Both the position numbers and the translations under genes were made by a program. Shown here in pieces: positions 7,364 through 9,614 of a stretch of DNA of 64,000 nucleotides. Origin of the DNA: a virus; the IMG/VR virus record IMGVR_UViG_3300021964_000013. One strand, given 5' to 3'. Below the pieces are notes generated by a model. The model had not been told where the DNA came from, made no database searches, and worked only from the letters and a program-made list of their open reading frames with translations. Each line of letters opens with the position of its first letter. The first letter of the stretch is position 1.

Positions 7364-7400
7364 AAAAGTGGTATGTGCAGATTTTGCATGTACCACTTTT
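7364..7400. terminator. Bidirectional terminator between the convergent transcription units
   Basis: AAAAGTGGTA-TGTGCA-gattt-TGCATG-TACCACTTTT inverted repeat with A/T tails on both sides. Confidence 0.75.
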
Positions 7401-7981
7401 TATTTTTCAGTGGCATACTTAACACCCATTATGGTTCCAACTATACTAAACGAATTAGTTAGCAGTATACCAAACAGATTAGACCAAGTACTTTCTATTA
7501 TCTTAGAATCATAACCCTGGTACAAGACAAACATATATAACAAAGATGTTATAACACCTACGCCCACAATAACTCCTAATGCAAGCTTAACAATAATACC
7601 TACTAACTCAAACTGAGTTTTCTTTTGCATGACCTCTAAGTCATTTAGAGCCTCATCTCTTAAACTTTCAGCTGCTTTTTTAGCATCTTCAAGTTCTTCC
7701 ATCTTATCCTGTAGATCTGATAAGAGAGCTTTATTTAATACGTTAGCTTCTTCAAGCTCTTTGTTCTGAGCCTGTACCTGCTTAGTAATGTCTAAACGCT
7801 TACGTCTTTGAGCTAAGTCTTTTCTTTTACACTCTTCAATGTAGTCTTTAACTTCATCATCAGTAGTCTTAGCCAGCAGCTTAACAAAGTTTCCTTCTAT
7901 GAAAACTTTCTTAGACTTGGCTTTAAGTATAGCTTCCTTTACCGTGTCTTTAGAACTAATCACCGCAGCAGTGTATTTCAC
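7400..7981 (-). CDS. Coiled-coil protein with two C-terminal transmembrane helices (start may be GTG 7963)
   Basis: Long charged helical region, then hydrophobic LVGIIVKLALGVIVGVGVITSLLYMFVLY and LFGILLTNSFSIVGTIMGV. Confidence 0.8.
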   Translation of the reverse strand: MKYTAAVISSKDTVKEAILKAKSKKVFIEGNFVKLLAKTTDDEVKDYIEECKRKDLAQRRKRLDITKQVQAQNKELEEANVLNKALLSDLQDKMEELEDAKKAAESLRDEALNDLEVMQKKTQFELVGIIVKLALGVIVGVGVITSLLYMFVLYQGYDSKIIESTWSNLFGILLTNSFSIVGTIMGVKYATEK

Positions 7982-8126
7982 AACTATCCAAGTAGGTATT
8001 ATCAGGATTACCGTTAGTTACATATCCTGTTTCATACTCTTTAGTATTACTATTAACTAAAAAACCAGCTAAACCTACAAGCAAGAAGAATATAATAGCA
8101 ACCCTAAATTCTATAATCAGTTTCAT
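7956..8126 (-). CDS. 56-aa single-TM/signal-anchor peptide with a Cys/His C-terminus (not in ORF track)
   Basis: MKLIIEFRVAIIFFLLVGLAGFLVNSNTKEYETGYVTNGNPDNTYLDSCEIHCCGD*; TAATG coupling to the receiver gene. Confidence 0.7.
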   Translation of the reverse strand: MKLIIEFRVAIIFFLLVGLAGFLVNSNTKEYETGYVTNGNPDNTYLDSCEIHCCGD

Positions 8127-8563
8127 TATCTATATACCTTAAAAGAATTTGTTTTATTTACATAGCCTTCGTAATCCTTATGAAACTCCTCAAGTCTTGG
8201 TTCAATATCATCAGACTTGATAATCCAGAACTGAGCCCCTACTTCTTTAGCTTTTTGTATTTCCTCTTCATCAGAGCTGCTAGATATAATGCCAATAACA
8301 CAGCCGTTACCATAGTCCTGGTTGATCTTACGTATCATTTCAATGCCATCAAAGCTTGATCCAATGATATTAAGATCTACAAAAACACACTGTGGTCTTT
8401 CGTGATCTGGATCATCTGGAAACCATGCTTTAAATTTTCTGTCAGCTTCGTCTGAGCTGTCTAATGACTCTATAGAGAGCGCTATATCTAACATGCTACA
8501 GGCATCTTCAAATACCAGGTGAAATAGATTCTCATCATCTATTAGCATCAATGTGTCGATCAT
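8126..8563 (-). CDS. Single-domain response regulator (CheY-like receiver)
   Basis: Acidic pocket LIDDE, phospho-acceptor VFVDLN, DGIEM, IISSS, conserved Lys in WIIKS; no output domain. Confidence 0.9.
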   Translation of the reverse strand: MIDTLMLIDDENLFHLVFEDACSMLDIALSIESLDSSDEADRKFKAWFPDDPDHERPQCVFVDLNIIGSSFDGIEMIRKINQDYGNGCVIGIISSSSDEEEIQKAKEVGAQFWIIKSDDIEPRLEEFHKDYEGYVNKTNSFKVYR

Positions 8564-9459
8564 ATCTTTATGTATACTTTTGTACCGTTATCTTGTTTCT
8601 CAGCAAACACACTGAAGCCGTGTTCTTTTAATATTTCAATAGATATATTAAGTCCAAGCCCTGTGCCACTTTCTTTTTGTCCTTCTTTTCTAGCATAAGG
8701 TTTACTAAGTTCAATAAACTCTTCACCTCTTAACCCTCTACCATTATCCTCTACTACAATGTAAGAACCACCGTGGTAGCTTGCTTGTAGATATATTTTT
8801 ATCCACTTAGTAGCAGAGTCGTTATATTTTAAACCGTTTCTAATAAAATTATCTATAGCAGTACAAAATAAAGCTTCATTAACATCCAGACCAATAGGTA
8901 AATCACCTGATAATAAAACCTGATTTTTATAAGCCGTAAGCTTTAGATAGTCTTCTAGTATAAACTTTATATTACAGGTTTTTTTGTTTAACTGAGCATT
9001 CTCTTTAACTAGATTAGTGAATTCATAGACACCAGCATAAACTTTTTGCGCGTGATACAAGCCATCTTCGATTAGCTTTAATGGAGAGGCTATTCTAAGC
9101 TCTTTAACGATGTCTTCGTTGAGTCTACGGTTCAAAGACTTGATACCTCTAGGTAAATAAGTATTGATACCGCTATGCATGTCATGTCTAATGATCTTAG
9201 CAGCGTGTTCTAAGTAAATGTTTTTCTTGCTAAGATCTTGTTTGATAGATTCTTTATTAGCTAGAAACTCTTTTACTACTAAAAAGAAAGGTGGCATAAA
9301 GGCAATAACCGATAGCCACTCAAAGTAATGTGTAAATGTAGAATGATGTATGTATTTAAAAACTACTAAAGTTTTAAACACAAAAAACGTAAGCATTATT
9401 ACTGTAGAGCACAACAAGCATATCCTAGAACGTATAGATATACCATCAAGTACGGACAT
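8560..9459 (-). CDS. Membrane sensor histidine kinase
   Basis: Two N-terminal TM helices; H-box IIRHDMH, N-box IDNFIRNGLKY, G1 VEDNGRG, G2 GTGLGL. Confidence 0.92.
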   Translation of the reverse strand: MSVLDGISIRSRICLLCSTVIMLTFFVFKTLVVFKYIHHSTFTHYFEWLSVIAFMPPFFLVVKEFLANKESIKQDLSKKNIYLEHAAKIIRHDMHSGINTYLPRGIKSLNRRLNEDIVKELRIASPLKLIEDGLYHAQKVYAGVYEFTNLVKENAQLNKKTCNIKFILEDYLKLTAYKNQVLLSGDLPIGLDVNEALFCTAIDNFIRNGLKYNDSATKWIKIYLQASYHGGSYIVVEDNGRGLRGEEFIELSKPYARKEGQKESGTGLGLNISIEILKEHGFSVFAEKQDNGTKVYIKI

Positions 9460-9614
9460 TATGCCTTATTTTTATTAAGATAATACCATCTCTGAAGAGT
9501 GTATCCTATAGATATCACTAAAAGCAAAACTTTTAGCGCTGTTTCTAAATTTGACATGCTTATACCTAGTGCCGATAAGTTTATAACGTAAAGTTTAGCG
9601 TCTTGTGCATTCAC
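9459..9614 (-). CDS. Small holin-like membrane protein (51 aa)
   Basis: GTG 9614 lies just after the stop of the large gene; two hydrophobic segments and a basic C-terminus (RWYYLNKNKA). Confidence 0.55.
   Translation of the reverse strand: MNAQDAKLYVINLSALGISMSNLETALKVLLLVISIGYTLQRWYYLNKNKA

Follow-up and report, generated by a model that had tools for sequence, protein, structure and literature searches.

A phage-encoded kinase, receiver and membrane-protein module with a probable link to host lysis

Why does a tailed phage carry a complete two-component module next to a holin-like gene, and what does this module act on? The question arises from a viral record of 64,000 nucleotides (IMGVR_UViG_3300021964_000013 in IMG/VR), the whole of which is called the window here. 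Five ORFs on its minus strand (Table 1) had been described in a first-pass annotation as overlapping, coupled genes closed by a terminator. All five were confirmed at the coordinates given there, and the arrangement is present in all its parts. The 51-aa and kinase genes overlap by TAATG, the kinase and receiver genes by ATGA, and the receiver and 56-aa peptide genes again by TAATG, while the 56-aa peptide gene overlaps the start of the gene for the coiled-coil/two-TM protein, called the effector here. The true effector start is probably the GTG at 7963 (187 aa), as in most close homologues. The hairpin that ends the series (z -5.3; equal stability reached in 0 of 200 shuffles) is probably a bidirectional intrinsic terminator.

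Table 1. Coordinates of the module, of other lysis-related genes in the window, and of two features at related loci.
Feature	Position	Strand	Remarks
51-aa membrane peptide, holin candidate	9459..9614	-	GTG start
Class I sensor histidine kinase, 299 aa, PAS-less family form	8560..9459	-	Pfam HATPase_c
Single-domain receiver, 145 aa	8126..8563	-	Pfam Response_reg
56-aa exported or membrane-anchored peptide, optional accessory	7956..8126	-	family matches in or beside module
Effector (coiled-coil/two-TM), ~187 aa	7400..7963 (annotated 193 aa, GTG 7981)	-	no Pfam
Hairpin between convergent genes	7364..7400	.	17 pairs
DUF5675 protein, putative endolysin	498..965	+	among replication genes, opposite strand to holin candidates
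TeaA-family (GTA_holin_3TM type) holin, 151 aa	49979..50434	-	27% identity to ICP1 TeaA
YgaP-like peptide, example	L026:7801-8001		
Module copy in a freshwater Bacteroidetes MAG	L131:4100-7481		multi-PAS kinase, receiver (66%), N-terminal domain-second kinase fusion; only cellular copy found

The phage is tailed: genes for a terminase, a portal and virion proteins lie upstream of the module on the same strand. Its terminase is 46% identical to that of Flavobacterium elemo phages; a crAss-like label was dropped, the closest terminases among cultured phages being those of Flavobacterium and Cellulophaga phages. DNA of this phage is present in estuary and seawater runs from several studies. An independent seawater contig of 20.9 kb covers positions 6500-10500, the sole change being 162 other bases in the slot of the 56-aa peptide, and the module is therefore not an assembly chimera; the chimeric join that the first-pass annotation had kept in view is ruled out. 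A promoter scan gave results at chance level. RNA runs contributed short sequences, namely an identical stretch of 239 nt from the kinase gene and a contig that skips the hairpin, too little to judge transcription by, and late expression of the module is inferred from its position and strand only.

The kinase matches Pfam HATPase_c (PF02518, E 1.7e-12, 48 bits versus a cut-off of 26), and its DHp region gave no match with Pfam HisKA. It has the H-box histidine of a DHp domain and a GHKL domain with N, G1, F and G2 boxes, as class I kinases do. Among 28 homologues there is no variation at H92 (H box), at N204/N208, in the G1 box (D238-G242) or at the G2 glycines, and the AF2 model matches HK853-type kinases (Foldseek E 3e-10). 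The two predicted TM helices (15-33 and 49-67) enclose an outer loop of about 15 residues, and the earlier description of a two-TM kinase with intact boxes stands. The His-rich loop had suggested metal sensing. This cannot be a property of the whole family, because most relatives have a Cys-containing loop in that place; the His-rich form is one of two main alleles, of which the Cys-containing one is the commoner. Relatives of the kinase have a PAS or GAF domain inserted between TM2 and DHp.

Directly before the kinase, 72 of 72 loci with the peptide encode a YgaP-like (DUF2892) membrane peptide of 62-66 aa with an invariant Cys-Pro (CPSK). This gene lies beside at least 58 of 72 kinases, and 12 of 18 of the peptides gave weak matches with PF11127. 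This phage, unlike most relatives, has no YgaP-like gene, so that its module is the variant lacking both the kinase PAS domain and this partner. The CPSK peptide and the cysteines of the commoner kinase loop, taken together, are a hint of thiol or redox sensing. The YgaP-like gene is often preceded directly by a gene for a basic amphipathic peptide of 36-70 aa (as at L007:7691-7816 and at about 40 other loci), the window not being among these loci. At L138:3030-3566 the YgaP-like peptide is replaced by a YceI-family gene, which is coupled to one of the family's PAS kinases.

The receiver matches Pfam Response_reg (PF00072, E 1.6e-8, 35 bits versus a cut-off of 30). With an acidic pocket, a phospho-accepting Asp, a Ser/Thr and a Lys, and no output domain, it is a single-domain response regulator. 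The corresponding residues D9, D10, D63, S94 and K116 are invariant among 35 homologues, which bears out the description of a stand-alone receiver with all catalytic residues; Lys116 is followed by Ser in place of Pro. The alignment has a mean identity of 81%, the beta4-alpha4-beta5-alpha5 surface is invariant, and dN/dS is 0.02-0.03. Single-domain receivers generally give a CheY-type output, by protein contact.

Viral contigs contain 123 relatives of the kinase and 87 of the receiver. At the best 80 kinase loci, the receiver gene comes next in 77/77 and the effector gene after it in 76/76 of those long enough to show it. This order, whose conservation across viral metagenomes had been put forward as a check, is maintained at effector identities of 26-33% and in widely differing gene surroundings. 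What is conserved is the core of kinase, receiver and effector and not the five-gene unit first described, the 51-aa gene and the 56-aa peptide gene lying outside it. At least 570 effector loci were found in marine and freshwater viral contigs, no receiver or effector of the family was found in cultured phages, and the family occurs in one of 401 Bacteroidota genomes searched. The arrangement in that lone cellular copy may be read as a kinase-receiver-kinase cascade. In a quick tree the bacterial copy is nested among phages, and the AU test did not reject phage monophyly (p 0.46). The view of an integrated phage module is thus upheld; the module is intact and phage-specific, has conserved synteny and is under purifying selection. 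A distant module at L235:3952-6345 is followed by genes for a caspase-like peptidase (C14), a membrane protein and a GH46 lysin.

What does the receiver act on? The effector consists of an N-terminal receiver-associated domain (1-75), a coiled coil and two TM helices (120-138 and 163-181). Its family comprises 5826 clusters, none with a Pfam domain; fold searches found its own family alone, and Atlas feature searches returned no named feature. In the AF2 model one helix extends from 36 to 149, continuous into TM1, while TM2 has an invariant polar face (W, N, T, N, S, T); dN/dS is 0.06-0.07. The linker has lengths of 38, 45, 52, 59, 73 or 80 residues and no others (158/158), i.e. it varies in steps of seven. 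Heptad register may be kept by any structural coiled coil. In other phages the hairpin is fused to PAS, PAS-PAS or GAF domains instead of the N-terminal domain, the linker of the PAS fusions measuring 37 or 44 residues. These PAS and GAF domains are 51-57% identical to the sensor domains of kinases of the same family, and the solved structures closest to the tandem PAS are MmoS and NifL. A receiver gene adjoins 93 of 96 effectors with the N-terminal domain versus none of 41 with PAS/GAF, these being counts of sequences, of which related ones are not independent. In the lone bacterial copy, the same kinase and receiver are followed by the N-terminal domain in fusion with a second kinase. Together, the domain swaps, the continuous helix and the heptad-only linker point to a protein in which an input domain is linked by a signalling coiled coil to an output in the membrane. 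The effector is thus very probably the output of the relay, as had been suspected for the two-TM protein, the receiver pairing and the domain swaps arguing for it. A complex prediction of the receiver with effector residues 1-84 scored 0.10 versus a mark of 0.32. Two fusions of the kinase TM part to the hairpin (P0291 and P0340, 50% representatives) were left out as possible assembly or gene-calling artefacts. No stand-alone hairpin gene emerged: the short homologues are mostly fragments, and the one examined comes from a complete module in which the effector gene is split. An inner spanin was rejected as well, both TM helices being C-terminal and the coil being fused to cytoplasmic PAS/GAF domains in relatives.

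The gene neighbourhood points to lysis. A gene of an endolysin family lies within 1.5 kb in 26 of 48 relay-type and 17 of 20 fusion-type clusters (90% identity), and in successive 1.5-kb bins it is found in 12, 1 and 0 of 25 relay-type and in 7, 0 and 0 of 7 fusion-type cases. With Pfam-verified endolysins alone the counts are 19/48 and 15/20, and the bins 7, 0, 0 and 6, 0, 0. The endolysin seeds had been taken from the very loci examined, a choice that makes matches likelier there, and the absolute rates therefore need an unbiased repeat. The enrichment holds for both architectures and for several unrelated endolysin families. About 45% of the three-gene modules, that of the window included, have no recognised endolysin within 1.5 kb. 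At the family level, a membrane protein gene thus stands beside an endolysin gene, as is expected of holins and antiholins, and the role of the module is probably tied to lysis.

In the window itself, the module follows the 51-aa gene, whose relatives precede an endolysin. The 51-aa protein has one clear hydrophobic helix in a Kyte-Doolittle scan and no Pfam or PHROG match. An M15 peptidase (endolysin) gene lies within about 1 kb downstream in 47 of its 56 viral relatives, and a kinase or receiver gene lies beside none of the 56; the 51-aa gene is near a kinase in just two other loci, found among those of kinase relatives. Because of this, we regard it as a lysis-cassette gene that the module has come to adjoin, and we see no sign that it is the direct target that the first-pass annotation had envisaged. 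The closest relatives of the module have a DUF5675 putative lysin gene and a small membrane gene just upstream of the kinase gene, while here the DUF5675 gene is 6.4 kb away. DUF5675 has been proposed as a C82-peptidase-like lysin (bioRxiv 10.64898/2026.04.11.717860).

The phage also encodes, at a distance from the module, a holin of the TeaA family. TeaA of phage ICP1 is an experimentally shown holin that is subject to lysis inhibition (PMC7182436). The two proteins align over 167 positions (pairwise E 1e-8), the C-terminal FFGS motif included, and the family profile matches TeaA at P 2e-21. Its gene lies far from any recognised endolysin gene here; in relatives it comes after the 51-aa gene and the M15 endolysin gene. 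This holin is a candidate partner of the effector, and because it is present, the effector is likelier a regulator or a second holin than the sole holin.

The effector itself has a weak likeness to this holin family. Weak matches with phrog_1544 were obtained for 19 of 26 effector members (best E 1.3e-4); prophage members of this PHROG adjoin lysozymes, and its profile matches ICP1 TeaA strongly. When 509 other two-TM ORFs were scored against the profile of TeaA-family holins, nearly all came out below the effectors (best E 3e-4), and reversed effectors reach E 6.4 or worse. HHalign comparison with these holins gave a probability of 18-37% versus at most 2% for 12 controls. No match with PF11351 was found among 45 effector members or in 5 genomes, and a direct comparison with TeaA gave none (HHalign 0.1%). 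Taken together, these results are no more than suggestive of a kinship between the effector hairpin and the TeaA holin family.

We propose that this phage-owned relay tunes host lysis, i.e. that lysis timing is gated by phosphorylation, a reading that we hold, from the sequences, to be rather likely and by no means assured. With its two helices the kinase would sense a signal at or within the inner membrane, and relatives have cytoplasmic PAS/GAF domains and the YgaP-like Cys peptide in addition; a membrane or redox signal seems the most likely type. Judging from the invariant catalytic residues, the kinase would autophosphorylate on H92 and pass the phosphate to D63 of the receiver. The receiver, which has no DNA-binding domain, could then dock on the N-terminal domain of the effector, as co-occurrence and domain swaps suggest. 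Docking may shift the register of the coiled coil, which runs into the two-helix hairpin, a step consistent with the heptad-only changes of the linker. The hairpin, possibly a distant holin relative, might be a switchable antiholin or second holin, as its gene neighbourhood indicates, and the effector would act beside the ordinary holin and endolysin of the phage. The wider proposition that aquatic Bacteroidota phages control lysis by a family of sensor-gated, holin-derived membrane proteins is put forward more tentatively. If true, a full phosphorelay in some phages and a directly fused PAS/GAF sensor in others drive the same hairpin, and burst timing tracks the redox, energy or membrane state of the host and not a fixed holin clock or superinfecting DNA.

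The same relay and effector could however serve another purpose at the membrane. Unrelated membrane and accessory genes, too, accumulate in lysis cassettes and at late-operon ends, and the position in lysis cassettes could mean shared late expression only. The hairpin would then be a gated channel or an inhibitor of a membrane protein, serving superinfection exclusion, the maintenance or lowering of the proton motive force, or a block on some process of the host envelope. The invariant polar face of TM2 would fit either a pore or contact with a specific partner; numerous modules are found at a distance from endolysins and next to ribonucleotide reductase or virion genes; and many lysis cassettes with the module already hold one or two other holin candidates. 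We nevertheless consider such a function unlikely, though it deserves serious attention, in view of the endolysin enrichment, which does not reach beyond the first 1.5 kb and recurs in both architectures and for several unrelated families of endolysin, of the weak TeaA-family likeness, and of the PADLOC defence models, which gave no match among 8 proteins.

Another possibility is that the main target of the receiver is a host protein, through cross-talk in Bacteroidota or as a phosphate sink, the effector being merely co-transcribed. Single-domain receivers are often hubs or sinks, one bacterial genome carries the family, and at L233 the receiver and effector genes have no kinase gene seen nearby, which means that host kinases may feed in. 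This explanation is improbable, since the receiver and the N-terminal domain come and go together (93/96 versus 0/41), and with the family in a single one of the 401 Bacteroidota genomes no conserved partner of this type is apparent in the hosts. The receiver and effector genes of L233 (4216-5211) are on a phage contig in an NCBI assembly, which also carries a crAss muzzle gene and in which TGA is apparently read as Trp.

Could the 56-aa peptide be a signal between phages, with the kinase as its receptor and the effector setting lysis by phage density? The peptide carries an export signal, its polar tail is conserved, and all seven true family matches in IMG/VR lie in or beside the module (relatives were found by a DNA pattern, and a protein scan confirmed none). 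Most modules, however, are without the peptide; several relatives are lipoproteins with a lipobox Cys and would thus be tethered, the copy of the window not being one; the near-identical strain has another allele of 162 bp in the slot with the kinase region almost unchanged; and the outer loop of the kinase measures only some 15 residues. Such communication appears very improbable. Finally, recent host cargo or an assembly chimera, for which only the slightly lower G+C of the module (0.33-0.37 versus 0.38-0.40 in the virion genes) could be cited, is refuted by the conserved synteny among the 123 and 87 viral relatives and by the independent contig, dN/dS being well under 0.1 and no close bacterial source having been found.

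Phosphorylation-gated lysis timing, our preferred reading, can be compared with known systems. Neither the kinase nor the receiver is unusual for its class: like HK853-RR468 of Thermotoga, they have the DHp/CA fold and all catalytic residues of kinase and receiver. Unlike that system, they are encoded by a phage, as a complete pair, and their apparent target is an undescribed coiled-coil/two-TM family. Lysis inhibition relies on the holin T with the antiholins RI and RIII in T4 (PMC11413866), and on the holin TeaA with the antiholin ArrA in ICP1 (PMC7182436). These systems share signal-dependent control of lysis by membrane proteins, and the phage of the window has a TeaA-family holin; but they are without kinase or phosphotransfer, the general searches made here brought up no relative of RI, RIII or ArrA, and the effector is not demonstrably of the TeaA family. 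In staphylococci, the two-component system LytSR is proposed to sense membrane potential and to control the antiholin-like LrgAB (PMC2996381). Two-component control of antiholin-like proteins is thus common to both, but LytSR is bacterial and acts by transcription, LytR inducing lrgAB, whereas the receiver here has no DNA-binding domain and control would be post-translational. Clostridioides phage phiCDHM1 carries an agr cassette with AgrB/AgrD but without a response regulator, the output being thought to be that of the host (PMC3901668). This cassette too includes a phage-carried histidine kinase gene; in contrast, the module encodes its own receiver and target and has no AgrB-like gene. Pfam matches of agr-type quorum sensing (AgrB, AgrD, LytTR) were absent from the module genes, and the receiver has no output domain. 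A complete phage relay with this output differs from all the systems compared, and in the mostly open-access literature searched we found no description of a phage kinase-receiver-lysis module or of a PAS-holin.

To our knowledge, environmental control of lysis timing is known from a few coliphages and from ICP1, via antiholins without any kinase. A complete phage phosphorelay ending in a lysis-cassette membrane protein would, if true, be a new way of setting burst time. The family also offers a new, predicted receiver-binding domain, and its members form a natural series that runs from a relay of three genes to a sensor fusion in one gene. The parts of the module are small and can be tested without culturing the phage.

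Other features of this phage may be mentioned. Three tandem and closely similar paralogues of about 80 aa (55970-56209, 56571-56816 and 57007-57243, plus strand) lie at the start of the early region. By sequence, a GroEL-like chaperonin is encoded at 53510-55078 (minus strand) and a GroES-like gene (phrog_13932) lies at 33614-34210 (minus strand); a second small GroES-like ORF may be present at 53263-53523. A MazG pyrophosphatase with a long N-terminal extension is encoded at 5130-5954 (plus strand), adjoining thymidylate synthase.
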